A stretch of 40,639 nt of DNA. Source: a virus. The DNA lies in IMG/VR virus record IMGVR_UViG_3300012923_000006, positions 1 through 40,639 of that record. One strand, given 5' to 3'. Below are positions 5,990 to 40,639 of this stretch, in pieces. Position 1 is the stretch's first letter; each line of letters starts with the position of its first letter. Below the pieces are notes generated by a model that worked only from the letters and a program-made list of their open reading frames with translations, searched no databases and was not told the DNA's origin. Position numbers and translations under genes: made by a program.

Positions 5990-6165
5990 TTTTCACCCAG
6001 CCACTGCTTGACCTTCACCCGCACCGCCCACCAGACCAGGATGAACGATCCAATCCCAATCCCGACCCGCAGAATCAGATCGATCTTGTCCAGCCATACC
6101 CAGATGGCGGCATTGGCAGGGACGGCCGCGGCGGTGATGCCGTCTGCTACTTTTTGGGGAGTCAT
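5986..6165 (-). CDS. Small membrane protein of the lysis cassette (holin/antiholin-like), short form
   Basis: MTPQKVADGITAAAV...IGIGSFILVWWAVRVKVKQW has one clear TM segment. The ORF track extends it to 6417 (143 aa), which remains possible. Confidence 0.45.
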   Translation of the reverse strand: MTPQKVADGITAAAVPANAAIWVWLDKIDLILRVGIGIGSFILVWWAVRVKVKQWLGEK

Positions 6166-6403: not shown

Positions 6404-8194
6404 CTAGTTGGGTACATCTGCCGGAGTCCTGCTCATTTCTATCCACGATGTATTGTCGTAACGAAACGTGATCGAGCGGCTGTTCGCATTGGCTGGATTA
6501 ACCCACGCCGACATCTTGTAAATTGCATTCCACGTCGCAGCTCCCAGCGCGCCACCCGATGTGTTGCGCACAACCACAGTGATCTGCTGGCCTGTGGTCG
6601 GACTCGTGGGCGCGTTAATCGTAAAGGCAGCCGCCGTAGAAGCCGGAACGATGAACGTATCCCCGGAATTCGCGACAATATTGACAGTCGCAAAGCTTGT
6701 CGTAACCTCAACTTTCGCAGTCCCGGAGGCGAATTTGAACACTCTGGAGTTGATATCAATGTCGAATAGATGGCCCGTACCACGCGACCATGCGAAGAAC
6801 GATCCAAGCGTGCCGGAGCTGTTGTCGATGCCGATTCCGGCATCCTTTGTCGAGCCTCCCGATGCGCGAATTACAATTCGACTCTGCACGTCCCATGAAT
6901 TCTCAAACATCACCTGATCTTTGCCGGAGGAGACGCTCCAGAAATCGTATGAGGTGACCGGGATATTGCCGCCACTCCCGAAAGACATATTGCCGGTCTT
7001 ACGTTGGACCAAGAACGGCACGTAATGCCCGATCGTATCTCCTGATACCGGGAGTTTTTCCAATAGATAATTGGAGAGATCTTCATCGGTGAAGTTAGGG
7101 CCTACTTGGGTGCCTTGTCCCAAATTCCAGGCAAAAGACCCATTTATGCCCCAGCCTATCTGTGCCCGGCGATTGTCCAAGGCAGTTCGAGACGGAGCAC
7201 CCGGAGCGGCTAGAATGCCATCACTCTGCAGCCAGATTCCGGGATTCCACGTACCCCGAATCAGTAGTTGATTTCCTTGGTGCTGTCCATAATTGATGAA
7301 GGTTGCTGTAGCGGTAGCAGCTGAAGAAAGCCCACCTGTCCACGTGGCTGTAGTCAGTCCATTCGTATAGGTGACATTGCGCACATCACCATTGGAGAAA
7401 GTTGTCGGCCAAGGCCCGGTAGCCAATGCCCAAATTGCAGTTAAAGTGGCTGATGTAGCCCCTCCACTCAGAGTGGTCGTGAAAGTGACCGTGGCCGTGG
7501 TCTGTGGCGTGAAGTAGAACTGCCGCTCTTGTGCGCCATCGTAAGCTACGGGGTATCCCGCGAAACTGTTGCCTGGACCATAATCCAATACAAGACATGG
7601 TGATAAACAGGAACTGAAATCTGGGAATGTCGTGAAATCGGTGACCTTATATCCGTAGCTGATGTTGGGCGGTACGATAACCACCCCGCCACTCGTCGCG
7701 CCTTCCGCACTGACGACTGATATTGCCACCTGCAGAGCGGCTTTGTTCACCGCATTGGATGCACTCTTAGACGCACCATAGCGGCGAATGTCATATGGAA
7801 TTGTTTCAGCCCAGTAATTAGTTGGCGTCACTCCAGCTAAAATTTCTGCTGGTGTTCGAGGGTAGAGAACCTGCCCGATGAGCTGCTGAGTGAGGGTCGC
7901 AAATGTCAGCCCGGAAATAAGTTGATCAACACTCCAAAACGGGTTCGTCGGCGGATCAGTATCAGTCGCTGGAGCAAGAACGAATTTATACGTCAGGGTC
8001 GGGTCGATCCAAACCTGTGCCTCACCGCGATAGTTCAATACGACTGGATTGGTGTTCGGAGTACCGCCAGTCGAATCCGTATAGGTCGCAATCTTCGTGG
8101 TTGTTCCGGCGATATACGTGAACAATAGCCCGCCAACCAATGGGAAGTTGTTGTTGTCGTAGAAGCGCTGAATCGGTAGAGGCGAAAGGTTCAT
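6404..8194 (-). CDS. Tailspike/tail fibre 2 with a shared N-terminal anchor and a probable pectate-lyase-like beta-helix
   Basis: The N-terminal ~93 aa are paralogous to 8196-9131. YDIRRYGASKSASNAVNKAALQVAI...GGVVIVPPNISYGY resembles the start of a pectate_lyase_3-type depolymerase domain. Confidence 0.7.
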   Translation of the reverse strand: MNLSPLPIQRFYDNNNFPLVGGLLFTYIAGTTTKIATYTDSTGGTPNTNPVVLNYRGEAQVWIDPTLTYKFVLAPATDTDPPTNPFWSVDQLISGLTFATLTQQLIGQVLYPRTPAEILAGVTPTNYWAETIPYDIRRYGASKSASNAVNKAALQVAISVVSAEGATSGGVVIVPPNISYGYKVTDFTTFPDFSSCLSPCLVLDYGPGNSFAGYPVAYDGAQERQFYFTPQTTATVTFTTTLSGGATSATLTAIWALATGPWPTTFSNGDVRNVTYTNGLTTATWTGGLSSAATATATFINYGQHQGNQLLIRGTWNPGIWLQSDGILAAPGAPSRTALDNRRAQIGWGINGSFAWNLGQGTQVGPNFTDEDLSNYLLEKLPVSGDTIGHYVPFLVQRKTGNMSFGSGGNIPVTSYDFWSVSSGKDQVMFENSWDVQSRIVIRASGGSTKDAGIGIDNSSGTLGSFFAWSRGTGHLFDIDINSRVFKFASGTAKVEVTTSFATVNIVANSGDTFIVPASTAAAFTINAPTSPTTGQQITVVVRNTSGGALGAATWNAIYKMSAWVNPANANSRSITFRYDNTSWIEMSRTPADVPN

Positions 8195-9384: not shown

Positions 9385-11430
9385 TCATGGCTTCCTGCTC
9401 TTTGGCCTGAGTCCGGCACCAGGCTTCAGAGCTTCGCGTACAAACCTCTTGTCCGACCGCGTCTCGATCTTCTCCCTGGCCAGAGTTCCCAGATCAGCCC
9501 CCGGTAGTACTGCATTGACTCCGCGCTCTGCAACGCCTTTGGCGAGGTTCGCCGCATGGGCCGCAACGGTCGTGTTGCTGTTGTTCACAAACGATCCACG
9601 GGGCTGTGCTTGTGTATACCGAGCAACATTGCCGAGGGTCTGGACTTGTTCCGCTCTATGTGGACCGACGAGCTTATTGAGCTTGGGAGTGAGTTCAGAT
9701 AGCGCGCGGTTGTAGCCTGCCTGAGAGAAATTCCCCTCGTTGGTGTAAAGATTCACCCCAGACTTCGACTTGAGGTAGTTCAGCGCGCCGGCAGTAATCG
9801 TTTCCCCCGCGGTAGGATCCCCCTGTAGTGACTCGCGCATCCGATCGATGTTCGATGACTTCCCTTTCACGACGTACTTGTGAATGAAGTCGTCCGCGAG
9901 CGGGGAGGCTTCGCCCATATCAACCGAATCTTCAGCAACCGCTTTGTATGCCGGATCTGCGCGCAACCGTTCAAACCGTGCTCGAGCAGCTGTTCGAGCT
10001 GCATCGGCAATTGGTTTCAGATTGGCTGATTCGCCCGTCATCGGAAGGGATTCGAGGGATTCGCGCACGATGTTGACAGCCGCCGCTGCGTTTCCATCTC
10101 CGGCCCGATCGGCCTTTCTGGCTTCCGCAGCGAGATTGGTTCGCAGGTTTTCGAATTGCTCGAAGTTCATGGCCACTTCGCCGCTACGGATGGCTTCGAG
10201 GTCTGCAGCTACCTGCGGAGGAACGTAGCGCCCTTTGAAAGCCTTCTTCAGTGCGGTATCGGCTTGAGTGACAAACGCTTGTCCATCGACAGGAAATTCA
10301 CCGCCATTCGCATCTCGGAGGGCCTGATACTTCTGATTGATATCCTCACGAACGGTCTGGTCGTATGCCTTATAGCTATCGATGAGCGTCTGGCCGTTCT
10401 GGATATGGTCATTACCGACAACACTCGGAGTGGCCTCGCGACGGATCTCATCAAGGTTATCGATGAGCTGCTGGTTGAGTTCTTGATAACGCTGAGCGAA
10501 TTCCGGATCTTTCCCGCGCCGATTGTGTTCGTGGGAAATCTGTACCGGATCCTGCGTGGCCATCCCCTCTGTGAGACGCATGGGAATTGGCAAAGAATCA
10601 GCCTCGAGATGGCGATCCAATGCAGCCCGATCTACGCCGCCCTCTCTGGCCTGAGCCCGGACAGCCGCTTGCAATTCTGGACTGGCGGTTTTGAGTTGCG
10701 AAGGTACAGCAGCGGCCGCACCGATCGATTCATGCTCGAGCGGATTGACATCGGGCGTGATGGGCTTTGGGGGAACCTTCCCGCCGACTGCGCGGACGGT
10801 CGCATCTGAAACGGCCTCACCAGCCTCGGCAATTTTGCGCCCGGCAGTTGCGACACCAGATGCGGTGGCTCGGGCTCCAGATGCGACTGCTCCTGGAACC
10901 TGTCGCGCGATTGACAGTGCAGGAGACGCAAATGGCGACAGCCCCATGACTCCACCAGCCGCGCCAGCCGCAGCAGGGGCCTCTCTGAGAAAAGTTTCTG
11001 CTGTCGGACTAACCTTGCCGACTTGTGTAGCCGCCTGATCTGCAGCGCCGCCAATAGCCTTGATCGCCGGGCCGTAAGTCGTTGCAAGATCCTGCTCAGC
11101 AGCTTTGGCACTGTCACTCTGTGGCTGATAGGTCAGATAGTTCTGTACGCGACTTTGGACTTCGGCCGGGTTCACGTCCGCGCCGAAAGCCTTGCCGACT
11201 GCCGCGCCTCCATAGGCGAGACCAGCAGGAATAGAGGCCACGGCTCCAGTCGCCATCTTGTACAGCTCTTCCGCGGCACCGACTGGTGCCATCACAAGCG
11301 AAGGTCTCTTGATTGGTTCCGGAGCCGGTTTCGCCCGTCCCTCGAGCAATGCAATCGCCCGCTGAGATGGTGTCTCTTGCGGTTGGTCCTCTCCATCGCC
11401 AGAGAGCAATGCTAGTGCGGCCTGACTCAC
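9385..11430 (-). CDS. Large virion protein, probable internal/DNA-ejection protein
   Basis: 681 aa with an Ala/Gly-rich N-terminal third and a helical remainder. It occupies the position between smaller internal proteins and the fibres, as in podoviruses. No enzymatic motif seen. Confidence 0.5.
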   Translation of the reverse strand: MSQAALALLSGDGEDQPQETPSQRAIALLEGRAKPAPEPIKRPSLVMAPVGAAEELYKMATGAVASIPAGLAYGGAAVGKAFGADVNPAEVQSRVQNYLTYQPQSDSAKAAEQDLATTYGPAIKAIGGAADQAATQVGKVSPTAETFLREAPAAAGAAGGVMGLSPFASPALSIARQVPGAVASGARATASGVATAGRKIAEAGEAVSDATVRAVGGKVPPKPITPDVNPLEHESIGAAAAVPSQLKTASPELQAAVRAQAREGGVDRAALDRHLEADSLPIPMRLTEGMATQDPVQISHEHNRRGKDPEFAQRYQELNQQLIDNLDEIRREATPSVVGNDHIQNGQTLIDSYKAYDQTVREDINQKYQALRDANGGEFPVDGQAFVTQADTALKKAFKGRYVPPQVAADLEAIRSGEVAMNFEQFENLRTNLAAEARKADRAGDGNAAAAVNIVRESLESLPMTGESANLKPIADAARTAARARFERLRADPAYKAVAEDSVDMGEASPLADDFIHKYVVKGKSSNIDRMRESLQGDPTAGETITAGALNYLKSKSGVNLYTNEGNFSQAGYNRALSELTPKLNKLVGPHRAEQVQTLGNVARYTQAQPRGSFVNNSNTTVAAHAANLAKGVAERGVNAVLPGADLGTLAREKIETRSDKRFVREALKPGAGLRPKSRKP

Positions 11431-12881
11431 GGCAGTTTCCCGGTCTCAGAGAGCGAGTCGAGCGCGGCCATTTTGCGCGCGACTTCCTTCCGGCGCGCGG
11501 GAGTCAGATCGCCCAGAATCGCCCGCTGCTGGGCCTCGTCCCCATCCGCTACAGCGTTCTCAAGCCGGAAAGCGTCGATGTCGAAGTTCTTGGCCCAAGC
11601 GGCTTTGAATTTCGGCAATTGGGTGTAATCCGTATCTCCGCCAGTTCCTACAACCTTGTCCAGTCCTTGGCGGTATTTCTCCAGTCCCGTGTTCGTTGCA
11701 TAGTTGAACTGCGTGACGGCCTTGAGAGCTTTCGCATTGAACTTGGTCGAGCCATTTGCAGCTACTGCGGCAGACAGACGCGCATCGCTCGGCGGCCCTC
11801 CCATTGCGGTCATGTTGCTGATGGCGTTCTTTTCCAGATACTTGCCCAGCTCTTGATAGTTGTCGCCGAACACCTGTCCGCCAATGGGATTATTCTGCAG
11901 CAGCGAGACCAACGGACCCGTATTGGTATCATCAGACATCTTCAGGATGTGCTGGAAGATGTTGCGATTCGATGGGGCTTGATCTGCAGCCGCACGAACG
12001 TTTCCGACTTCCTGCTGGAATGATTCGATGTCATGCTGCTGTCCCGGATAGCTCGGTTGAGAAAACGTAGCCTGTTTGGGCGATGCACTTGGACCAGCAG
12101 GATTGCGACCGCCGCCCACAGGAGTGACAGTGTTCTTCTGTGGATCAAAAGCGAACTGCGCACCCTTCTGGTCGGTCAGGATCTGAACGCCAGGACCCAC
12201 AGTGAGCGGAATGCTATTCGGCGCAGCTCCTGGAGCGGCATTCGGGTTGATGTTGGTGAGATCGGCTCCGGTATTTGAGTACTGCGGCCTTTGCTCCTCA
12301 ATCTGCTTACCAGCCGATTCCGCCTGCAATTGAATGGCTCGAAGCGCATCGGACATCCGGCCTTTCGGCGCTTTCTGCAAAGGACCGGCATAAGCGCTGA
12401 GTACAGGCAGAGCATCCTCTCCATACATCTGCCCGTATTGGAGCATTGCTTGGTTGACTTTCTGCCGGCCCTTGTCGCTGTCTTCTGCGACATCTTTGTC
12501 CGAGCGTAGAGCCCCAACCATGTCGGAGAACGCTGCCCGTTGGTCATTGCGCAGTCCGACGAGTTTCGACTTCGCATCGAGTTGACTGGCTTTTGCAGTG
12601 ACTGCACTCTGTACGACATCCAGATATTTATCTCCGGCAGCCTTCATCAGCTCCGTATCGTTCAGCGAGTTGAGATCAAATGTCCCATCATCGCCAATGT
12701 GCTTATTCCAGTCGTAGGTGGCTAATGCAGAACGCTGGCGTTGCGTCTGTTGAGCGCCCGCGACTTCCGCAGCCTGACCCTGCAGCCCCAATTTCTGATG
12801 CTGGATGGTAAGCAGCTGAGAGAGTTTGCCGAATACATCGGGAGTTTGTGCCCCGAGTCCAACTCCGGTGAATTCTGACAT
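11427..12881 (-). CDS. Virion protein, probable internal/ejection protein
   Basis: 484 aa, Gln/Ala-rich and helical. ATGA overlap with the next gene. Assigned by position only. Confidence 0.45.
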   Translation of the reverse strand: MSEFTGVGLGAQTPDVFGKLSQLLTIQHQKLGLQGQAAEVAGAQQTQRQRSALATYDWNKHIGDDGTFDLNSLNDTELMKAAGDKYLDVVQSAVTAKASQLDAKSKLVGLRNDQRAAFSDMVGALRSDKDVAEDSDKGRQKVNQAMLQYGQMYGEDALPVLSAYAGPLQKAPKGRMSDALRAIQLQAESAGKQIEEQRPQYSNTGADLTNINPNAAPGAAPNSIPLTVGPGVQILTDQKGAQFAFDPQKNTVTPVGGGRNPAGPSASPKQATFSQPSYPGQQHDIESFQQEVGNVRAAADQAPSNRNIFQHILKMSDDTNTGPLVSLLQNNPIGGQVFGDNYQELGKYLEKNAISNMTAMGGPPSDARLSAAVAANGSTKFNAKALKAVTQFNYATNTGLEKYRQGLDKVVGTGGDTDYTQLPKFKAAWAKNFDIDAFRLENAVADGDEAQQRAILGDLTPARRKEVARKMAALDSLSETGKLP

Positions 12882-13528: not shown

Positions 13529-13995
13529 CAGACCATTCCCAACATGCGTCCGGCTTGGGTATCACCGTGTGCTGCACGTAACGCGAGAATCTGCCGCAAT
13601 TGCATGTTGCCGCCGTTCGGATCACCTCCTTGACCGCCGGCATACATCTGTTGCGGGCCCATAGCGAGTGTGGGCTGAATTCCACCTCCAGGAGTCGGAC
13701 GCCATGCGCCGCTCGGATCTCCTGCAGGACCGCCGGCAAACATGCGCGTAGTACCCGGGTTGGGTCTCACAGACTGGATGTTTTGATTTGGATTGGGACT
13801 GAGACCCAATAGCGTGTTGAGCCGACCCAAAGCACCATATCCGGATTGAATGTACGGCTGCTGCTGTTGATTCAGCAGATGGAACTGGTCCATGTTCAGG
13901 TTCGCAGCGTTCTTGGCTGCGGATGCCTGCTTGTTGGCGCCGTATATGGATGTGCCGATGCCTACTGCGCCAACGGCCACCGCAATCCATGTCAT
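13528..13995 (-). CDS. Virion protein with an N-terminal TM segment, probable internal protein
   Basis: MTWIAVAVGAVGIGTSIY is a hydrophobic N-terminus. There is an internal duplication (MFAGGPAGDPSG and MYAGGQGGDPNG). ATGA overlap with the HNH stop. Confidence 0.45.
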   Translation of the reverse strand: MTWIAVAVGAVGIGTSIYGANKQASAAKNAANLNMDQFHLLNQQQQPYIQSGYGALGRLNTLLGLSPNPNQNIQSVRPNPGTTRMFAGGPAGDPSGAWRPTPGGGIQPTLAMGPQQMYAGGQGGDPNGGNMQLRQILALRAAHGDTQAGRMLGMV

Positions 13996-14528
13996 TGAAT
14001 TATCTCACATTTCTCTACTACGTGCCCCCATCTTTTACCCGTAGATGCGTAGTAGATCGTGGCTCGGGAGACATCGAATTCACGAGCGAGTGCATTCAGA
14101 TTTTCGCCAGCCGCGACTCGGCGCCGGATATCGCGGACCTTCTCTTCATTCAATTTCGCTTGGCTATGCCGTTCGCCCTTGTTGCACTGAAGACCGAGAC
14201 GAAATGAATGCTTTTGGTTTTCGGAAGGAGTCACGTATTCCAGATTGACAGCCGCGTTATTCCCTTTGTCGCCATCAATGTGATTGACGTGCTGGCCTTC
14301 CGGACGTGGCCCTATGAAGACCTCTGCAACAAGCCTATGAACCGTGAAGCGCTTCTTTACGGGTCCGGTCTGGAGCTCGACGGAGAGATATCCGCGAGAT
14401 TTTGAGAATGCCAATAATCCCGGGAGTCCGGATTTGGCGTAGTTCATCGACATCACGTTCCCTAGGTCGGAAACGGCGTAGATGCCCTCGTAACCTTTAA
14501 TCGATGCCCACTGTTCGTGGCAAGACAT
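13992..14528 (-). CDS. Homing endonuclease, NUMOD4 + HNH_3 + C-terminal HTH
   Basis: EQWASIKGYEGIYAVSDLGNV is a NUMOD4 motif and VNHIDGDKGNNAAVNLEYVTPSENQKH is an HNH motif. ATG 14528 lies 32 nt inside the 3' end of the upstream gene. The segment is visibly more AT-rich than its flanks. Confidence 0.8.
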   Translation of the reverse strand: MSCHEQWASIKGYEGIYAVSDLGNVMSMNYAKSGLPGLLAFSKSRGYLSVELQTGPVKKRFTVHRLVAEVFIGPRPEGQHVNHIDGDKGNNAAVNLEYVTPSENQKHSFRLGLQCNKGERHSQAKLNEEKVRDIRRRVAAGENLNALAREFDVSRATIYYASTGKRWGHVVEKCEIIQ

Positions 14529-15012
14529 GCTCGACCTCATGAGGCTCGGCCTCAATGAGTTCGATGCACGCTCTCGCCAGTGCAGCATCTAACTCGGCAT
14601 AGTCCGGCGCGATAATTTCGCGCTCGATATCTGCGAGATTCGTCGATTCTACAACATGGACCGTTGTCCACCAAGTTTCTTCATGCACATAGAGCGCCCG
14701 TTTCGTGCCGGGTTTAGAGGTGAAAATTACAGGTTGCTGACGTGCATCGATCTGCATTCGCCCGAACTCGGTCACCACAGTCACCAGACCGCGGGACACT
14801 ATATTGACGTGCGCATGCCTGTGTATTTTACCAACTACTAGCGCTCCAGCTGGAAGCTGAATGCCCCTCGCGTACGATCCTGGCGCAAAGGTATGGGTCA
14901 GCGGACAATCGATCTGCTCGAATTCCCGCATACGGGATTCAAGCGCTAGGATTTGCTCCCGCGAAGGTATCAGCACCTGTTCAAGCGCCTTACTTTCAGC
15001 TTCGAAGCTCAC
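14497..15012 (-). CDS. Conserved phage protein, possibly cupin-like
   Basis: FAPGSYARGIQLPAGALVVGKIHRHAHVNIVSRGLVTV resembles a beta-barrel phage family I recall from podovirus structural modules. The function is unknown. Confidence 0.35.
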   Translation of the reverse strand: MSFEAESKALEQVLIPSREQILALESRMREFEQIDCPLTHTFAPGSYARGIQLPAGALVVGKIHRHAHVNIVSRGLVTVVTEFGRMQIDARQQPVIFTSKPGTKRALYVHEETWWTTVHVVESTNLADIEREIIAPDYAELDAALARACIELIEAEPHEVEHVLPRTVGID

Positions 15013-25437: not shown

Positions 25438-25829
25438 TGTTTCTGAGTGGCCATGCCAAGCGTGATGAGCCGCCACCTTATAAAATCAATCTTGTTACCG
25501 ATGTGCAGGCCAGAGCTGAAGACCGACCAATATTCCGCGGGTAGCTTCCAACTCGATTTGGCTCGTTGCGCTGCTGCACGCGCGTCCGCTAAGGGCGTTC
25601 TCATGCATCCTCCCTGAGGCTGCTCGGCTACCCATGCTCTCCTGTGCAAAGGGGATATCCAACCTGTCCGCTTTGGCGGTCCACCGTCATAAAGCTTGTG
25701 AGTCTCCTCGGTGCTCAGGACCGTAAAAGAGATGTCGCAGGGGAAGCAGTAGTAGTCATCATGAGCAATATCGTAGCCCAAATAGGCGGAGCGGCACTCA
25801 GGGCACGTATACTGCGGTTGCATGGTCAT
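25434..25829 (-). CDS. Hypothetical protein with an N-terminal zinc ribbon (CPEC...CFPC)
   Basis: 131-aa ORF with an ATGA overlap with the upstream gene. Confidence 0.55.
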   Translation of the reverse strand: MTMQPQYTCPECRSAYLGYDIAHDDYYCFPCDISFTVLSTEETHKLYDGGPPKRTGWISPLHRRAWVAEQPQGGCMRTPLADARAAAQRAKSSWKLPAEYWSVFSSGLHIGNKIDFIRWRLITLGMATQKQ

Positions 25830-26203
25830 GAGGCTTCCCTCACTCCCGCCACATCACGCTCGGTGATGATCAGGTGCTTGATCCCGTTCACAATGACCTC
25901 TGGGAAGTCATAGCCGCGTCCGTCGAAGATGTTCAGGCCACCGAGTTCCACGACATCACCGACCTTCACTTCAGTCCGCTGAAAGCGCTTGGAGAAGTCG
26001 ATTCGCTGCCTGCCGTCGTTGAGCTTGGTGCGCTTACTCACCGGATGAATGCCGGGGCCGACTGCGACAACCTCACCACGAACCGGTCTGCCTTGGCGGA
26101 TGGCGGTGATGACCTTGCTCGCTTCCCAGTCGAGTGGCTTGAGCAATATGCGATCACCTAACATGCGCAAAGGACCAGTGATGACTTCGGGATGCTCACC
26201 CAT
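25826..26203 (-). CDS. GroES/Cpn10-like co-chaperonin fold protein
   Basis: LGDRILLKPL...RGEVVAVGPG...VKVGDVVEL...LIITERDV aligns by eye with GroES (HDRVIVK...RGEVLAVGNG...VKVGDIVIF...LIMSESDI). ATG 26203 is preceded by GGAG. Confidence 0.55.
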   Translation of the reverse strand: MGEHPEVITGPLRMLGDRILLKPLDWEASKVITAIRQGRPVRGEVVAVGPGIHPVSKRTKLNDGRQRIDFSKRFQRTEVKVGDVVELGGLNIFDGRGYDFPEVIVNGIKHLIITERDVAGVREAS

Positions 26204-26417
26204 ACCTAGGCTCCATTGCGCGTTGGCGCAGGACTTCAACTCGCTCGACATATCCGAACGACGCATAGCCTTCAGGCGAGGCGTAATGCAGGACCCGCGT
26301 GCATCCTTGGGCTGCGAGGTGTTTCTCAGCGCCTTCGCGTTCTGGCGCGGTGTCAGAGCCCCTGCGGAATAGGTAGTGATAGGCCTGGGGAAGATCAATT
26401 GAGTCTTCAACGATCAC
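26196..26417 (-). CDS. Hypothetical protein (73 aa)
   Basis: GTG start abutting the endonuclease VII stop. It reads as a more protein-like frame than the N-terminal extension of ORF 25826-26410. Confidence 0.45.
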   Translation of the reverse strand: MIVEDSIDLPQAYHYLFRRGSDTAPEREGAEKHLAAQGCTRVLHYASPEGYASFGYVERVEVLRQRAMEPRYG

Positions 26418-26908
26418 TAGTGGCTCCCGTTGCGCAGATAGGCTAGCGCTTTGCTTAGTAGCTCCGGGCTATCGCCCAATCGGCCAAGAGCAGTGTTGCA
26501 CCCAAAGCAAAGCCAGCCGCGGAATCGGCCAGTGTCGTGGCAATGATCGAGATGAAGCCCCCGATTGCCTTCAGGTCGCTGATCGCAGATTTCACATCTC
26601 TCAGGGCATGGCCTTATTGGCTCTGGGTAGCCAAGACGCTTCCATTTTGCGAGTTTGTGCTTATGGCTATTTGCGCGCTGATATGCCTTACGCCTCTCAG
26701 CATGTTTGAGAGCGGATTGTTTGGCGGAGGATTTGTATAGCTCGGGATTTGCCAGTCGCCATGCCGCCGCAAGTTGCTTGCCGCATTGACAGCACATACC
26801 ATTCTGCGTATAGCGCGGCCCTGTATGTCCATACTTGCAAGGACGTCCAGTCACATACTGCGAATGGCCCTGCTGCCGCGCGACTTCACGTTCGCCAATA
26901 ACTGGCAT
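26417..26908 (-). CDS. Recombination endonuclease VII family protein with an N-terminal zinc-ribbon extension
   Basis: CEICDQRPEGNRGLHLDHCHDTGRFRGWLCFGCNTALG matches the Endonuclease_7 signature. The N-terminus carries CKYGHTGPRYTQNGMCCQC. Confidence 0.7.
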   Translation of the reverse strand: MPVIGEREVARQQGHSQYVTGRPCKYGHTGPRYTQNGMCCQCGKQLAAAWRLANPELYKSSAKQSALKHAERRKAYQRANSHKHKLAKWKRLGYPEPIRPCPERCEICDQRPEGNRGLHLDHCHDTGRFRGWLCFGCNTALGRLGDSPELLSKALAYLRNGSH

Positions 26909-30763: not shown

Positions 30764-30883
30764 TCATTTGCCGGCCAGCTTCATGAAGATGAAGAACCAG
30801 ACAGTCATGCTCACCGCACCGAGGGCGATGCCGACGAGCAGTGTTTCCAGGCTTTTTTTTGAGACCTGAGGGGGGTCGGTCAT
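30764..30883 (-). CDS. Small single-TM peptide (39 aa), below the ORF-track cutoff
   Basis: Hand translation gives MTDPPQVSKKSLETLLVGIALGAVSMTVWFFIFMKLAGK. GGGGAG lies 4 nt upstream of the ATG. Confidence 0.5.
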   Translation of the reverse strand: MTDPPQVSKKSLETLLVGIALGAVSMTVWFFIFMKLAGK

Positions 30884-30912
30884 ACGTCTCCCCAAGTTAT
30901 TGTTTTTGTTGG

Positions 30913-31119
30913 TCATGCGCGGTTTCTCCCGTTTTGTCCCGAGACGCGCAGCCGGTCCACAATTAAGGTTGCTTCATGGACAAGCCGCTTAATCTCTGGG
31001 ACCAGAAGGTTTTCGATGAACTCGCCCTGCGTGAGTCCCTTCGCTTCGAGAATCGCCTTGAGGGCCTCGTACATATCGGGGTCCAGCTTCGCGCGTACGT
31101 CTTGGCGCTCGAGGCTCAT
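30913..31119 (-). CDS. Ribbon-helix-helix-like regulator (68 aa)
   Basis: RQDVRAKLDPDMYEALKAILEAKGLTQGEFIENLL fits a beta-strand/helix/helix layout. ATGA overlap with the XRE gene. Confidence 0.45.
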   Translation of the reverse strand: MSLERQDVRAKLDPDMYEALKAILEAKGLTQGEFIENLLVPEIKRLVHEATLIVDRLRVSGQNGRNRA

Positions 31120-31340
31120 CGCGCCGGCCGACGCTTCAGGAGTGGCTTCTCGAGGAACATGGCGAGCAGCGCTTCACAAGGAAGGCCGGTCTCTTTCACG
31201 ATCCTGGCGAAGACGTCCAGCGGAGGTCGGCTGTGCCGATTGAGGTACTGGGAGACGCTGGTGGGATGGACTTTGATGCTTGCTGCGAATTGGGCATGCG
31301 TGATGCCCATCTCAGAAAGCCGGTCAGTCAGGAGTTTCAT
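31116..31340 (-). CDS. XRE-family HTH regulator (Cro-position)
   Basis: GITHAQFAASIKVHPTSVSQYLN is a classic XRE HTH. It is the first gene of the minus arm and is divergent from the CI-position gene. Confidence 0.7.
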   Translation of the reverse strand: MKLLTDRLSEMGITHAQFAASIKVHPTSVSQYLNRHSRPPLDVFARIVKETGLPCEALLAMFLEKPLLKRRPAR

Positions 31341-31350
31341 TACCCCTGAG

Positions 31351-31391
31351 ATTAGCAGTGCTTCATTCCTGACACAAGAGGGGTGCTAATG
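31351..31391. promoter_or_regulatory. Bipartite element A: ATTAGCA-N26-TGCTAAT (operator and/or back-to-back extended -10 promoters)
   Basis: ATTAGCA at 31351-31357 and TGCTAAT at 31384-31390. The 16-mer AAGAGGGGTGCTAATG (31376-31391) recurs inverted at 32015-32030. The element lies between the divergent regulators. Confidence 0.6.
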
Positions 31392-31414
31392 TATTTCTAT
31401 TGCGGAGTCAATGA

Positions 31415-31876
31415 ATGTTTTGCGATACTAAAGTTAACAATAAGGCGATTGATTCTCGGGTCTCATTACGTCGTCACATGGCTGCCAAGAAGACAGTACG
31501 TCGCACACCATTGAGCGAGGAGCAGAAACGGGATTGCCGGCTGCTCCGCGAGAAGTGGGACGAGCTCAAGCGAGCGGGTAAGCCGCTATCGCAAAAGCAG
31601 CTGGCAATACTTCACGGCGTAGATCCAAGCACTGTCAGCCAGATTCTGCGACTTCATATCGCTCTGAACACCGAGTGGAAGCTGAACTTCGCGGATTATC
31701 TCGAGACTCTCCCGCAAAACATCTGGCCCGATTGGGCCTACAGCCGTGTGACAGCCGGACGTATACCGGAGGGTATGGCGCCCATCGCTGAAGCGTGGCC
31801 CGACATGCCCGACGAGAAGAAACTGGCGCTGGCGACACTCGCTCTCCCTGGCGGCAATTCCCGCCGCAATTCTTGA
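31415..31876 (+). CDS. HTH regulator in the CI position
   Basis: LSQKQLAILHGVDPSTVSQIL is an HTH. GGAG lies 7 nt upstream of ATG 31415, but the first 21 codons are AT-rich, so ATG 31478 is an alternative start. Confidence 0.6.
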   Translation: MFCDTKVNNKAIDSRVSLRRHMAAKKTVRRTPLSEEQKRDCRLLREKWDELKRAGKPLSQKQLAILHGVDPSTVSQILRLHIALNTEWKLNFADYLETLPQNIWPDWAYSRVTAGRIPEGMAPIAEAWPDMPDEKKLALATLALPGGNSRRNS

Positions 31877-31901
31877 TCTAGGTTAGCTCTCCATACAGAG
31901 G

Positions 31902-31917
31902 GCCCCAAACCTGGGGC
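31902..31917 (+). terminator. Weak candidate terminator after the CI-position gene
   Basis: GCCCC-aaacct-GGGGC followed by TTAGCTTTCC. The stem is short and the T-tract poor. Confidence 0.3.
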
Positions 31918-32014
31918 TTAGCTTTCCACACGCTTTTATTGTCCAACTAGCGGCCGTCGCCGCATTGCGACATACGTCTCATATTCCGTATCTCACCCAG
32001 GAACGGATAAAAAA

Positions 32015-32056
32015 CATTAGCACCCCTCTTGTACTCACCGGTTAGCGGTGCTAATG
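32015..32056. promoter_or_regulatory. Bipartite element B: ATTAGCA-N26-TGCTAAT, second copy
   Basis: ATTAGCA at 32016-32022 and TGCTAAT at 32049-32055, with the same 26-bp spacer length as element A. It contains the palindrome TTAGC-ggt-GCTAA (32042-32054). Confidence 0.6.
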
Positions 32057-32085
32057 TCGGTCCCACATTGGATGGGGTTACCGAA

Positions 32086-32241
32086 ATGATCATCGACGCC
32101 GAACTGGACCGCGCTCTGCAACTCGCCATTGGCACCCGCAAGGATCGAATCCGCGCTGAGAAAGCGCTGGAGGTTTTGCGAGCGAAAGAAGACCGCGCGG
32201 CGAACGAGCTCGAAACTCTGGTCAAACAGAGAACGCCATGA
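32086..32241 (+). CDS. Small helical protein (51 aa)
   Basis: First ATG downstream of element B within ORF 32029-32241. Confidence 0.45.
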   Translation: MIIDAELDRALQLAIGTRKDRIRAEKALEVLRAKEDRAANELETLVKQRTP

Positions 32242-32375
32242 CCATCCCCGGCACCCGCCAGCTCGTCGCGCGAATCATCGCCAAGCACGTTGAGGCTTTG
32301 ATGCATCCGCAGCCGGTGGTTCCGATGCCAAGCCCTTGTCAGCCTGGATTCATGAGTCGGAGGCAAGGCGAGTGA
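32238..32375 (+). CDS. Small hypothetical protein (45 aa), below the ORF-track cutoff
   Basis: Hand translation gives MTIPGTRQLVARIIAKHVEALMHPQPVVPMPSPCQPGFMSRRQGE. ATGA overlap upstream and GTGA overlap downstream. Confidence 0.4.
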   Translation: MTIPGTRQLVARIIAKHVEALMHPQPVVPMPSPCQPGFMSRRQGE

Positions 32376-32602
32376 AATTCAACATTCAACATTTCGTAGA
32401 TACGCGCACAAACGAACAGAAGCAGCGTTATCAGACGATTGAGCAACAGCGGGCAGATGCGCAGGCGAGCATGTGGTTTTCGCCGACTGCCGGAATTCTC
32501 GATGTGATGGCCGCTATCCGCCAGCGCTGGCCCGATCGGGTGATTCAGCGCGGCGTGATCCGCCGAATGGTCAAACGGCTGCGCGAGTTGCGCGGCGAAT
32601 AA
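32372..32602 (+). CDS. Hypothetical protein (76 aa)
   Basis: GTG 32372 with GGAGG 10 nt upstream. The track start at 32336 is TTG. Confidence 0.5.
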   Translation: MKFNIQHFVDTRTNEQKQRYQTIEQQRADAQASMWFSPTAGILDVMAAIRQRWPDRVIQRGVIRRMVKRLRELRGE

Positions 32603-32979: not shown

Positions 32980-33707
32980 ACGTCGCAGTAGTTGAGATGC
33001 TGCCTCAACAGCAGGTGACCGAAATCACGCCGATGCAGATGCTGCAGGTCGCCGTTGCACAGGGCGCTGATCTGGAGCGCATCCAGAAGCTTATGGACCT
33101 GCAGGACCGGTGGGAGGCCAAGCAGGCGCTGCACGCTTTCAATGCGGCTCTGGCTGCCTTCAAGAAGAATCCGCCGAACATCGTCAAAGACCTTCTGAAC
33201 AAGCAGTACAACTCCTGGTACACCTCTCTCGGCAATCTCGTGAACACGACGAACGCCGCACTGGGAGAGCATGGGCTCAGTGCTAGCTGGGAGATCGAAC
33301 AGGGCGAACTGATCGCTGTCACCTGCGTCCTTGAGCACGTTCAGGGCCATAGCAGGCGCGTTCGATTGGAAGGTCCGCCGGATACTTCCGGCTCGAAAAA
33401 CACTCTCCAGCAAATCCGCTCCACTCTGACATACCTCAAGGGCGCGACGTTCGAAGCCGTGACGGGCATCGCCTCGCGTGCTGGCAACCAGGATGACGAC
33501 GGCAATGGGGCTGTAGCCAAGCGTGAACCGGCACCGACCGGGTACGACAAATGGAATGCCGACATGACGGTCCTTGCTGAAGAAGGCATGGAGCCTCTGA
33601 CAGCCGCTTGGGGGAAATCCAGCGGAGAGTTCCGCCGCTACGTCGTGAAATTTGATGAGGCATGGTGGCGCGATTGCAAATCGAAAGCCGGGAAGGTGGC
33701 TAAATGA
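32976..33707 (+). CDS. ERF-family single-strand annealing protein
   Basis: YNSWYTSLGNLVNTTNAALGEHGLS...LEHVQGHS...IRSTLTYLKGATFEAVTGIASRAGNQDDDGN follows the ERF pattern (Y.Y..L..v...L...G......H.SG....GSA.TY.RRY...GI...DDDG). Confidence 0.6.
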   Translation: MNVAVVEMLPQQQVTEITPMQMLQVAVAQGADLERIQKLMDLQDRWEAKQALHAFNAALAAFKKNPPNIVKDLLNKQYNSWYTSLGNLVNTTNAALGEHGLSASWEIEQGELIAVTCVLEHVQGHSRRVRLEGPPDTSGSKNTLQQIRSTLTYLKGATFEAVTGIASRAGNQDDDGNGAVAKREPAPTGYDKWNADMTVLAEEGMEPLTAAWGKSSGEFRRYVVKFDEAWWRDCKSKAGKVAK

Positions 33708-34198
33708 GTTTCACCGCCGAAGAGCTGCTTCGGCTCTTCAGACTTGAGGAGCATGGCGTTCTCGTCTGGGTCGCTCCCTCAAAATATCACAAGAATGTAA
33801 TCGGGAAGGTTGCTGGTGCTCCTACCCCTGGGCACTCCGGGAAGCACTACTGGAATATCAGCATTAACGGCCGCAGGTATAAACGCTCGCATCTCGTCTA
33901 CTGCATAAACGCAGGACGCTGGCCCAGGGAGCAGATAGATCATATCGACGGCAACTCGTTGAATGATGATCCGTCTAATCTTCGAGAGGCCTCGCACATG
34001 CAAAACATGTGGAATCTCAAGAGGCGGAAGAAGCGTCTCGCGCTTCCAATGGGCGTGAAGCTGCTGGCTAGCGGGCGGTATCAGGCGCGTATCCGGGTAA
34101 ATAACAAGTGTCTGGCGCTCGGCGCCTATGAGACACCTGATCTTGCAAGCGCAGTCTATCAATCAGCGCGCAGGCAACACTTTGGAGAATTCGCATGA
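33704..34198 (+). CDS. Homing endonuclease, HNH_3 + AP2 DNA-binding domain
   Basis: QIDHIDGNSLNDDPSNLREASHMQN is an HNH motif. GVKLLASGRYQARIRVNNKCLALGAYETPDLASAVYQSARRQHFGEFA is an AP2 domain. ATGA overlaps at both ends. Confidence 0.8.
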   Translation: MSFTAEELLRLFRLEEHGVLVWVAPSKYHKNVIGKVAGAPTPGHSGKHYWNISINGRRYKRSHLVYCINAGRWPREQIDHIDGNSLNDDPSNLREASHMQNMWNLKRRKKRLALPMGVKLLASGRYQARIRVNNKCLALGAYETPDLASAVYQSARRQHFGEFA

Positions 34199-34839: not shown

Positions 34840-35297
34840 AGATCGAGCTCTACAGACGAGGCAAGGGCTGGCTGCCTGCGAGCGACGATGCCGAGAAGGT
34901 GTTGGGCCGCATGGAGCAAGGCGAGATCTGCTGGGTCAAGCCGCTGCGCATTCGCGACCTGACCGCGCACCGGCGCTACTGGAAGCTGATGACGATGTGC
35001 GCCGAGAACTGCGAGCAGATCGAGCTGCCACACGGCGGGTTCATGCAGATCCAGTCCAAGGATGACGTTCATACGGCAATCAAACTCTGTACCGGGCTCG
35101 TGACGACCATCTTTGATGCTGCCGGGAAGCCAGCCTTTCAGATCCCGAAGAGCACTGACTACGAGAACATGACGGCCGACGACTGGAACGAGTATTGGCC
35201 GAAGGTTCTCGACGTGGTGTCGCAACGGATCATGCCTGGCATCCAGATTGCCGAGGTTGAATTCGAACTGCAGAAGTGCATGGGATGGGCGCGATGA
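34836..35297 (+). CDS. DUF1367-like phage protein
   Basis: LPASDDAEKVLGRMEQGEICWVKPLRIRDLTAHRRYWKLM resembles the DUF1367 N-terminal pattern as I recall it. Confidence 0.45.
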   Translation: MKIELYRRGKGWLPASDDAEKVLGRMEQGEICWVKPLRIRDLTAHRRYWKLMTMCAENCEQIELPHGGFMQIQSKDDVHTAIKLCTGLVTTIFDAAGKPAFQIPKSTDYENMTADDWNEYWPKVLDVVSQRIMPGIQIAEVEFELQKCMGWAR

Positions 35298-35665
35298 GCA
35301 AGCGCCCTCCAAACAAGCGAGAACAGGCTCGCATCGAGCGTATGGTCCATATGGGGTGCGTGGCATGCGCCGCAATTGGGATGCCCAACTATCATCAGTT
35401 GGAACTCCATCACATCCTCAGCGCGGGGAAGCGTATGGGCCATTGGTATTCCCTGTTTTTATGCAAGGGTCACCATCAAAACCAGTTCACTGACGCTCAG
35501 AAAGCGCGCCTGACCTACTTTGAGAGGGCCTCCATTGCCGGAGGTCGAAAGTTATTCTCGGCAGTCTTTGGAACTGAGCGAAAGCTGTGGGAGAAAGTGC
35601 AGTTCGTTCTCGACCTTAGTGACGAATGGCCGACCTCCAAGATCCTGCCGCGGAGGGCCGCCTAA
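35294..35665 (+). CDS. Ref-like RecA-dependent HNH-type nuclease
   Basis: REQARIERMVHMGCVACAAIG...LELHHILSAGKRMGHWYSLFLCKGHH matches the RecA_dep_nuc (P1 Ref) pattern. ATGA overlap at the start. Confidence 0.55.
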   Translation: MSKRPPNKREQARIERMVHMGCVACAAIGMPNYHQLELHHILSAGKRMGHWYSLFLCKGHHQNQFTDAQKARLTYFERASIAGGRKLFSAVFGTERKLWEKVQFVLDLSDEWPTSKILPRRAA

Positions 35666-37021: not shown

Positions 37022-37290
37022 CCGGAACAGAGCGAACGCTCCCTGCAGATGAGTACTACCTGCAGGTACGTGGCCATAGCGGTAATTCGCTGCTGTGGTG
37101 GAGGAATGGGCGACACGGCTACACGTGCGACATTCAGCAAGCGCATGTTTTCACCAAGGAAGAGGCGTTCAGGCAAGCCAAGGTGCGCGATGGTGAGGAT
37201 ATCCCATGGCGCAAAGACTACATCGATGCGCACCTTCAGCATCATGTCAACTCTGAACTCGTCAGCCGAAAGCACGAAGGTGCCGTATGA
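37018..37290 (+). CDS. Conserved phage protein of unknown function (90 aa)
   Basis: GNSLLWWRNGRHGYTCDIQQAHVFTKEEA resembles a widespread small phage family. ATGA overlap at the start. Confidence 0.55.
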   Translation: MTGTERTLPADEYYLQVRGHSGNSLLWWRNGRHGYTCDIQQAHVFTKEEAFRQAKVRDGEDIPWRKDYIDAHLQHHVNSELVSRKHEGAV

Positions 37291-37979
37291 GTGACTCACT
37301 AGTACTTCGTCCCGAAGATTCCCGCAACTATCCCGAATTCCAAGAGTTCGGGAAGATTGCGCGCCTCAACCGGGAAGTCATCGTCACTGAGAAGATCGAC
37401 GGCACCAACGGACAGGTGCATATCCGGCTTGCCGATGGCTCAGAACTGGAGCATGGATACGATTGCCAGATCCACGTCGATGGCGTCCCGCACTACATCC
37501 GAGCCGGCTCCCGCAATCGCTGGGTGGCTCACGTCGGTGGCGACGACAACAACGGCTTTGGCCGATGGGTCTATCAGCATGCCCACGAGCTGGCCGCATT
37601 GGGCGCTGGCTCGCACTTCGGCGAATGGTGGGGCCAAGGTATCCAGCGCAAGTACGGGCTGACTGAGAAGCGCTGGAGCCTGTTTAACACGGGCCGTTGG
37701 GTACGCGATCCGGGCGAACCGCTGCGCGAGACCTTCCCGGAAGGTGACAAGCGAGCCTATGCGCCTGCCTGCTGCCACGTGGTGCCGATCCTCGCGCAAG
37801 GCGTGGGGCTCTATGGGCCGGTGGAGGAAGCGTTAGACCGTCTTCGCATGAATGGCAGCGAAGCCTCGCCCGGTTTCATGAAGCCGGAAGGGGTTGTTGT
37901 CTTTCACGTCCACTCGCGCGAGTCCTTCAAGGTCACTCTGGAGCGTGATCAGGAACCAAAGAACCGGAGGGAAGGATGA
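37287..37979 (+). CDS. RNA ligase family nucleotidyltransferase
   Basis: Motif I is KIDGTN. GEWWGQGIQ, EGVVVFH and FKVT appear in the order expected for motifs III, IV and V of ATP-dependent RNA ligases. Confidence 0.7.
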   Translation: MSDSLVLRPEDSRNYPEFQEFGKIARLNREVIVTEKIDGTNGQVHIRLADGSELEHGYDCQIHVDGVPHYIRAGSRNRWVAHVGGDDNNGFGRWVYQHAHELAALGAGSHFGEWWGQGIQRKYGLTEKRWSLFNTGRWVRDPGEPLRETFPEGDKRAYAPACCHVVPILAQGVGLYGPVEEALDRLRMNGSEASPGFMKPEGVVVFHVHSRESFKVTLERDQEPKNRREG

Positions 37980-40296: not shown

Positions 40297-40535
40297 AACT
40301 CACCCCTGAGCAACTTGGCTGGCTGAAGTGGCTGCACGAGAATGGCGGTCATGGCTGGCTCGACCAGTACGGGCGAGTCATTGCTAACGGCGCCAACTCG
40401 AAACAGGGCTCACAGGTCTCTTGGCTGAATCTGTTCGTGAAAGGCATGATCCACGCGGATACCAACCGGATAGTCCTGACTGACCTGGGCCGCATGAAGC
40501 TTGGACTATCGTCTACAGGAGCCGAGAATGGATAA
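40293..40535 (+). CDS. Hypothetical protein (80 aa)
   Basis: ATGA overlap at the start. Possibly winged-helix-like, which is a weak impression only. Confidence 0.55.
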   Translation: MKLTPEQLGWLKWLHENGGHGWLDQYGRVIANGANSKQGSQVSWLNLFVKGMIHADTNRIVLTDLGRMKLGLSSTGAENG

Positions 40536-40639
40536 AGACAGCCTGCAACGGTTCCTTCTGCCCTTCACCGAGGACATCGATGTCTACGTGGAGCTCGGCG
40601 GCATCCCATGCCGGATCGAGCGCGCCAGCTACATCAACA
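40522..40639. repeat. Terminal direct repeat, copy 2 (identical to 1-118)
   Basis: Same 118 bases as the window start. This is most simply the assembly overlap of a circular or circularly permuted genome. Confidence 0.95.
40528..40639 (+). CDS. 5' fragment of the gene annotated at 7-459 (duplicate caused by the terminal overlap)
   Basis: The sequence is identical to 7-118. It is not an independent gene. Confidence 0.9.
   Translation, partial: MDKDSLQRFLLPFTEDIDVYVELGGIPCRIERASYIN

Follow-up and report, generated by a model that had tools for sequence, protein, structure and literature searches.

A putative lambda-like early-regulation region built around a short CI-like repressor gene in a metagenomic phage genome

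We analysed a region at about 31-32 kb of IMG/VR virus record IMGVR_UViG_3300012923_000006, a stretch of 40,639 nucleotides that is referred to here, at its full length, as the window. Our reading, to which we give a probability of roughly 0.78, is that the region is an early-regulation (immunity-type) switch of the lambda kind, in which the gene for a small CI-like repressor lies between two inverted promoter/operator modules. Each module is predicted to comprise an outward-facing sigma-70 promoter (-35 TTGTnn, 17-nt spacer, extended -10 TGcTAATnT) that bears two operators, with O1 over the -10, O2 just upstream of and touching the -35, and their centres 25 bp apart. We infer binding, promoter activity and the direction of regulation from the sequence, homology, geometry and conservation described below, and the individual features are collected in Table 1.

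Two inverted copies of one module

An earlier note on this DNA had drawn attention to two copies of ATTAGCA-N26-TGCTAAT on either side of a single helix-turn-helix (HTH) gene, and direct reading confirmed this geometry. Element A joins ATTAGCA at 31351-31357 to TGCTAAT at 31384-31390, and element B joins ATTAGCA at 32016-32022 to TGCTAAT at 32049-32055, both across a 26-nt spacer. These are the only two perfect matches to the 40-nt pattern in the 40.6-kb window (31351-31390 and 32016-32055). Allowing up to two mismatches brought in one further match, at 6112; shuffled versions of the window held 0.10 matches on average, and 0 of 100 shuffles reached three. All four TGCTAAT heptamers found on both strands of the window are arms of elements A and B. 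The 16-bp inverted match reported between the elements is real and extends to 22 identical positions over 23 nt (31374-31396 against 32010-32032), and when element A is reversed and complemented, it aligns with element B across about 50 bp (element A reversed, AAATACATTAGCACCCCTCTTGTGTCAGGAATGAAGCACTGCTAATCTC; element B, AAAAACATTAGCACCCCTCTTGTACTCACCGGTTAGCGGTGCTAATGTC). Elements A and B are inverted copies of one module of about 50 bp that flank the central gene, and their occurrence lies far beyond chance.

Within each element, the putative binding unit is a pseudo-dyad of 13-15 bp, (A/T)TAG-N5-CTA(A/T), that is present twice, and not one palindrome with a 26-nt spacer, because the two sites are direct repeats in element A of L232, element A of L234 and element B of L236, three of the related loci described below. 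The heptamers first noticed would be the outer, better-conserved half-sites of two neighbouring predicted operators. An operator role, as originally proposed, is supported by flanking sites that are kept in distant relatives and whose sequence tracks the proteins, whereas the idea of a single bipartite site does not survive the direct repeats in L232, L234 and L236. When the window was scored with a weight matrix derived from 16 sites in the four closest genomes, its four sites reached 18.8-22.4 bits, compared with 14.7 bits for the next best position in the window and a maximum of 17.0 bits over 30 shuffles. Only two sites per element exceed background by this matrix, the relatives likewise have two per element, and no further cluster in the genome reaches operator scores. 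The centres of O1(A) and O2(A) lie 25 bp apart, as do those of O2(B) and O1(B), the last being the best dyad among the four window sites.

A similar module was found in five related metagenomic lineages, with repressors that are 30-77% identical. The contigs that encode the close homologues, L001-L005, have kept synteny and both elements, and more distant homologues occupy the same position (P0123 at 56% identity, P0044 at 32%, P0030 at 30% and P0048 at 34%). The gene order in the relatives is an HTH_3 gene, a CI-like gene and then recombination genes, and the recombination arm of L234 ends in a tyrosine integrase. A phylogenetic footprint of eight elements from four close genomes left the blocks AC.TTAGCACCCCT.TTG and AGC..TGCTAAT.TC invariant, with 12 nt between them varying freely. 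Further away each lineage has its own site, namely ATAGGAGCGCTAA in L232 (core CGCTAAT), ATAGTGGTACTAA in L234 (TACTAA), ATAGGTGGGCTAT in L236 (GGCTAT/AGCTAT) and ATTGGGTGACTAT in L239 (GACTAT), compared with the core TGCTAAT in the window, and sites resemble each other more closely inside a lineage than across lineages. In the related phages the module around the repressor is thus kept, with the site sequence shared by the close genomes and changed by lineage further away.

Among 14 pairs tabulated from seven loci, the centres lie 25 bp apart in 13 and 26 bp apart in the other, the three direct-repeat pairs staying at 25-26 bp, and by our reading element B of L239, which is outside these 14 pairs, also has a 25-bp spacing. 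The predicted recognition helices of the central protein (DPSTVSQILR) and of the Cro-like protein (HPTSVSQYLN) resemble each other, and the CI-like and Cro-like helices change together between lineages, from STVSQIL/TSVSQYL in the window to GMISHYM/GALNHWI in L236 (more fully, TPGMISHYMR/STGALNHWIN).

The module is narrowly distributed in the collections that we searched. Among viral contigs, a composite 38-nt pattern was found in L001-L005 only, and it had no match in genome contigs or metagenome contigs; the 14-base TTAGCACCCCTNTTG and the 7-N26-7 pattern gave only single chance occurrences in viral contigs. A protein-based scan of viral contigs found no relative, and the same type of scan of metagenome contigs found two distant loci, L237 and L238.

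The central repressor and the promoters around it

By its sequence, the central protein belongs to the HTH superfamily as a divergent member and falls below the threshold of every curated family. Compared alone with Pfam, it reached HTH_31 at E 0.074 and HTH_35 at E 0.005, both short of the cut-offs, and 14-15 of 48 family relatives matched HTH_3 or HTH_31 at E <= 0.01. Close relatives form only three other clusters (71-77% identity) among 5.8 billion proteins. A profile search of 1.84 billion representatives returned 118 remote relatives, from which the family alignment of 48 sequences was drawn. In hhalign, the family matched lambda CI with a probability of 96.9% (E 1.5e-10; residues 29-106 on CI 4-80), in an alignment that takes in both the basic N-terminal arm (RRTPLSEEQ against KKKPLTQEQ) and the recognition helix. 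A profile search of PDB with the 48-sequence alignment retrieved the lambda CI N-terminal domain (NTD) chains 1rio and 1lmb at E ~1e-10. The AlphaFold model made with this alignment had a predicted local distance difference test score (pLDDT) of 85.8, and its top PDB matches in Foldseek were the lambda cI-NTD structures 1rio, 3kz3 and 1lmb (template modelling (TM) score 0.69-0.80; root-mean-square deviation 1.9 A over 76 residues); a model from four sequences was unusable (pLDDT 43). The top matches in the viral library include uncultured-phage proteins named XRE or 'Repressor protein CI'. Based on the profiles and the model, we identify the central protein as a homologue of the lambda CI N-terminal DNA-binding domain. 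It ends 47 residues past the HTH domain, and two extra helices in the model (119-130 and 133-143) are predicted to stand in place of the S24 protease/oligomerisation domain of lambda CI; Peptidase_S24 had no match in the window protein or in the 48 family members scanned.

The central gene had been taken as 31415-31876, and we have revised its start to 31478, since a conserved, putative promoter -10 lies at 31421-31429. The later start is favoured because this conserved repressor promoter sits downstream of the ATG at 31415, because the equivalent ATG in L232 and L234 opens only a short out-of-frame or terminated frame, and because translation from 31478 yields MAAKKTVRRTPLSEEQ, which matches the N-terminus of lambda CI. 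Conservation from 31415 covers the first nine codons, at the DNA level and with no synonymous changes, and is absent from the following twelve; the source gene call also starts at 31478. On these comparisons, the gene probably starts at 31478 and encodes 132 aa.

The outward-facing arms were proposed to be extended -10 promoters, and this is supported by a TTG that directly follows O2 in every lineage, with an outward TAnnnT hexamer within O1 at 17 (once 18) nt further on. The -35/-10 geometry of the outward promoter is preserved in 8/8 aligned elements. Equivalents of the rightward promoter read TTGCAT-17-TAATCT in L232, TTGATT-17-TAAATT in L234, TTGAAC-17-TATATT in L236 and TTGCAG-17-TATCTT in L239. 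Better hexamers occur at the same position in relatives, for example TTGACT-18-TAAAGT and TTGCCA-17-TATATT, and those of the leftward promoter are improved in L232, L234 and L236. Transcription is predicted to start at about 32064 on the rightward side and at about 31340-31342 on the leftward side, where it would give a leaderless or nearly leaderless Cro-like mRNA. The suggestion of such an mRNA gains support from the Cro-like ATG, which is 8-11 nt past the leftward -10 in six of seven loci and has no Shine-Dalgarno sequence; the exception, L234, has a 36-nt leader with a Shine-Dalgarno sequence. On the rightward side, 28 nt separate the -10 from the ATG in the window (32052-32088), unlike in L005, where the first rightward gene starts 6 nt past the -10 (797-811) and is leaderless.

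The inward-facing arms had been read as promoters as well, including one in element B for an antisense RNA. We rejected them, as relatives have lost either the TG or the final T (the inward hexamer of L232 is TAATTG without the TG, and L234 also has no TG) and no -35 is conserved; nothing was found in support of the antisense RNA.

The repressor gene appears to have a promoter of its own, with a -35 that begins about 10 bp to the right of O2(A) and a predicted start at about 31436. The block G.TT.G..A.ACT is invariant in 8/8 aligned lineages, the most distant ones (L236 and L238) included, and lies at a fixed distance from O2(A). We read the block at 31421-31429 as the repressor-gene promoter used by the host polymerase, because it stays constant while the operators change. 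The weak terminator suggested behind the central gene was found as a hairpin followed by a weak T-rich tract, and hairpins of differing sequence occur at the same position in L001, L005 and L234, the last being canonical with a U-run.

Some further features lie close to these transcription signals. Between the repressor terminator and element B is a palindrome, TGCGAC-N4-GTCGCA (31966-31981), which has one mismatch in the window and is perfect in L001 (~944-961); it is also present in L005 (~712-729), L232 has the version CGACA-TAG-TGTCG, and the conserved TATCTCAC comes after it. This palindrome may serve as a second terminator or as a binding site. No Rfam family was found in 30800-32600. 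Repeats of TTTTGCG(A) in and near the repressor gene were considered as a third motif and rejected, as their number in the window is close to that expected by chance and the relatives do not conserve them.

The genes on both sides are as first described, with an XRE gene and replication genes to the left and recombination genes to the right. The minus arm consists of the XRE HTH gene, a ribbon-helix-helix-like gene, a replication initiator and a P-like loader, and the plus arm of small open reading frames (ORFs), Erf, an HNH endonuclease, a YqaJ exonuclease, NinB and a RecA-dependent nuclease. The Cro-like gene is conserved in all relatives, and it diverges from the repressor gene across a gap of 74-137 bp that holds O1(A) and O2(A). 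The OL-cI-OR topology proposed for the region was thereby upheld, as the CI-NTD homologue diverges from the Cro-like gene of the replication arm and is co-directional with the recombination arm.

We propose that repressor dimers would occupy O1 and O2 at both modules, blocking the -10 and the -35. Occupancy would shut the leftward operon (cro-like, ribbon-helix-helix-like and replication genes) together with the rightward operon of recombination genes. The Cro-like XRE protein, with its similar recognition helix, may bind the same sites as a counter-regulator. The repressor gene would form a single-gene unit between the modules, with its own extended -10 promoter and weak terminator, and cooperativity and an effect on the repressor's own promoter are conceivable parts of the scheme. 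Induction by the lambda route is excluded because the repressor has no cleavage domain, and derepression would come about by something other than RecA-stimulated autocleavage, such as an antirepressor or dilution by Cro.

Table 1. Predicted and annotated features of the region (positions in the window)
Feature	Position	Strand	Description
Cro-like XRE HTH gene	31116-31340	-	74 aa; heads leftward replication operon; Pfam HTH_3 E 6.6e-7; PHROG repressor/regulator families
Leftward early promoter (PR-like), predicted	31349-31377	-	-35 TTGTGT 31372-31377; 17-nt spacer; extended -10 TGcTAATCT 31349-31357
Putative operator O1(A)	31351-31365	none	ATTAGCA g TGCTTCA; covers -10 of leftward promoter; 18.8 bits
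Putative operator O2(A)	31376-31390	none	AAGAGGG g TGCTAAT; abuts leftward -35; 22.4 bits
Candidate repressor promoter (PRM-like)	31400-31429	+	-35 TTGCGG 31400-31405; 18-nt spacer; extended -10 TGcGATACT 31421-31429
Short CI-like repressor gene (probable start)	31478-31876	+	132 aa; upstream in-frame ATG 31415 would give 153 aa
Hairpin, putative weak intrinsic terminator of repressor transcript	31901-31918	+	GGCCCCA-AACC-TGGGGCT, then TTAGCTTTCC, a weak T-rich tract
Putative operator O2(B)	32016-32030	none	ATTAGCA c CCCTCTT; abuts rightward -35; 22.4 bits
Rightward early promoter (PL-like), predicted	32029-32057	+	-35 TTGTAC 32029-32034; 17-nt spacer; extended -10 TGcTAATGT 32049-32057
Putative operator O1(B)	32041-32055	none	gTTAGCg g TGCTAAT; covers rightward -10; 20.5 bits
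First gene of rightward operon	32086-32241	+	51 aa; no assigned function; homologous first gene in L005

Weighing the switch against other explanations

Several observations count against a working switch of this kind. Three of the four window sites pair one good half-site with one poor one (dyad arms 2/4), and the 25-bp spacing sets adjacent dimers on different faces of the helix, with a repressor that does not have the cooperativity domain of lambda CI. The outward promoters of the window match the sigma-70 hexamers at only 3/6 positions each, and a generic promoter scanner called no site, which in the case of the leftward promoter is due to this low fit of each hexamer. Element A of L239 is irregular, and no clear pair of flanking sites could be made out in the distant loci L237 and L238. 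No relative was found by a protein-based scan of 185,579 reference genomes, and GenBank phages gave nothing either, whether searched with 4 kb by megablast or with the repressor by tblastn. Finally, neither an integrase, a partition gene nor an antirepressor was recognised in the ORFs scanned of the complete genome. Lysogeny is unproven for this particular phage, since none of these three is recognisable.

The last of these points carries the strongest of the competing explanations, in which the module works and there is no lysogeny: the phage would be lytic or formerly temperate, and the repressor/Cro-like pair would time early expression. We consider this unlikely, although it deserves to be kept in mind. 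The contig represents the whole genome, assembled as a circle of 40,521 bp, because its ends overlap exactly over 118 bp (1-118 = 40522-40639), and this completeness, together with the missing integrase, partition system and antirepressor, speaks for such a phage; so do the reference genomes searched, in which no prophage copies were found. The ORFs scanned yielded neither a recognisable protelomerase nor a recognisable antirepressor family, antirepressors being small and diverse. A search for the LexA box CTGT-N8-ACAG found none, this consensus being of the E. coli type, which may not be that of the host. On the other side, the relative L234 has the same module plus an integrase, a terminator-bounded single repressor gene between repressible early promoters is the standard temperate design, and several ORFs without detectable homologues could hide a new recombinase.

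A more far-reaching proposal is that a minimal CI family, hitherto undescribed, confined to metagenomes and consisting of a lambda-type headpiece and a two-helix tail, runs a bistable switch with two operators per promoter in a complete P22-like genome without an integrase, in the service of non-integrative lysogeny or of lytic timing, and that a longer isoform from a promoter embedded in O2(A) is part of the decision. We offer this as a speculation and rate its chances as low.

It is improbable that the sites are operators of the Cro-like XRE protein alone, with the central protein acting as an activator or as an exclusion or accessory regulator elsewhere. The Cro-like protein is a clear HTH_3 member, the central protein of the window matches HTH models weakly (best E 0.005), and both proteins co-vary with the sites, so that covariation cannot separate them. 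However, the homology to the DNA-binding domain of lambda CI spans the N-terminal arm and the recognition helix, the central gene is in the cI position in every lineage, and the genome has no other site cluster.

We see still less of a case for each element as a single bipartite operator, in which 7-bp half-sites 26 nt apart (33 bp from centre to centre) would be bound by one extended or looping oligomer. ATTAGCA-N26-TGCTAAT is indeed exact at both elements, and L232 has the same 7-N26-7 layout in its element B (ATTAGCG-N26-CGCTAAT). Nevertheless, the direct repeats in three elements of the relatives keep the 25-26-bp spacing unchanged, and each site is itself a 13-bp pseudo-dyad, as in TTAGCGGTGCTAA at 32042-32054, with arms 4/4. 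Domains of the CI-NTD type, to which the central protein belongs by homology, bind dyads of 14-17 bp as dimers in lambda, 434 and P22. Least credible of all is that the elements are only duplicated strong promoters to which nothing binds specifically: TGcTAATnT is an extended -10 and its outward copies have a -35 TTG at 17 nt, but O2 lies upstream of the -35, where no -10-like sequence is needed, and is nonetheless the best-conserved block and changes in step with O1 in each distant lineage, which is unexpected for elements read by a host polymerase, whereas the plausible pure promoter at 31421-31429 is the block that is invariant across lineages.

Known switches, the rest of the genome and significance

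The predicted switch resembles that of lambda in several respects. The repressor gene and the cro gene point away from each other on either side of a shared operator/promoter region, with the same layout in the relatives; a second operator/promoter of the same consensus, downstream of the repressor gene, would drive the recombination arm; the cro side leads into replication genes; and the DNA-binding domain of the repressor is homologous. Adjacent operators are about 24-25 bp apart from centre to centre, the spacing of OR1 and OR2 in lambda being 24 bp. There are also differences. The window has two sites per region and lambda three, the repressor of the window lacks the S24 domain, the Ser/Lys dyad and the Ala-Gly cleavage site, and there are no rex genes, no recognisable N gene and no integrase in the window genome. 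The leaderless-looking mRNA is that of the Cro-like gene here and of cI in lambda, and the distance between OL and OR is 0.64 kb compared with about 2.3 kb. L236 has an extra 83-aa ORF with a hydrophobic N-terminus (1490-1741) between the repressor gene and element B, in the position of lambda's rex/exclusion genes.

In 434 and P22, the repressor and Cro have similar recognition helices and read the same short dyad operators. The helices of the repressor and the Cro-like protein of the window are similar too, but in 434 and P22 the C-terminal domain of the repressor is cleavable and each operator region has three sites.

The closest functional parallel is in the Gifsy prophages, whose repressors GfoR, GtgR and GfhR, together with DicA and RacR, are small, non-cleavable proteins of 136-150 aa (PMC3121763). 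The Gifsy repressors resemble only the N-terminal domain of lambda CI, have no autocleavage motif and lie in a lambdoid immunity region, and the prophages are induced via an antirepressor (PMC3121763). GfhR of Gifsy-3 has its promoter between a pair of in-frame AUGs, and a second promoter further upstream gives rise to a longer isoform (PMC3121763); in the window, the in-frame ATGs at 31415 and 31478 likewise flank the conserved -10 block at 31421-31429. Small repressors of this type are inactivated by a dedicated antirepressor under LexA control; in the window, neither an E. coli-type LexA box nor a recognisable antirepressor gene was found among the ORFs scanned. GtgR of Gifsy-2 was rejected as a homologue, with an hhalign probability of 0.2% against the window family and a BLASTP E of 18, and its flanks had no comparable sites.

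The layout is of the lambdoid immunity-region kind, and the repressor belongs functionally among the small, non-cleavable CI-NTD-like repressors. It represents a new sequence family of a known design, because it has no sequence relationship to GtgR, is below the threshold of the curated families and was not found in GenBank phages or reference genomes. The region is real, well defined and fairly ordinary, and the case is unusual only in that no integrase was recognised in the complete genome, which makes lysogen formation uncertain.

Outside the region, the structural genes (portal, scaffold, coat and terminase) are P22-like, and among cultured phages Xanthomonas phage PBR31 has the closest portal (40% identity). 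The genome also has two genes for HNH endonucleases, both probably homing endonucleases: that at 33704-34198 separates erf from the exonuclease gene, and that at 13992-14588 (NUMOD4 + HNH_3 + HTH_7) lies within the structural block. Accessory genes at 35276-35665, 37287-37979, 26417-26908 and 25826-26410 have as their products a RecA-dependent (Ref-like) nuclease, an RNA ligase family protein, endonuclease VII and an ORF product that matches Cpn10 (GroES-like) weakly. Three large ORFs in the tail region of the structural block, at 6404-8194 (596 aa), 9385-11430 (681 aa) and 11427-12881 (484 aa), had no Pfam or PHROG match.

In conclusion, our analysis describes a compact switch with four predicted operators, three predicted promoters and two small regulators within about 1 kb. 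The understanding of phage switches is unchanged by this region. Since the sites and their spacing are defined by comparison across five lineages, the set is directly testable and might be reused as an orthogonal set of repressors and operators. Overall, the small non-cleavable CI-like design appears to extend well beyond enterobacterial prophages, into soil metagenomes.

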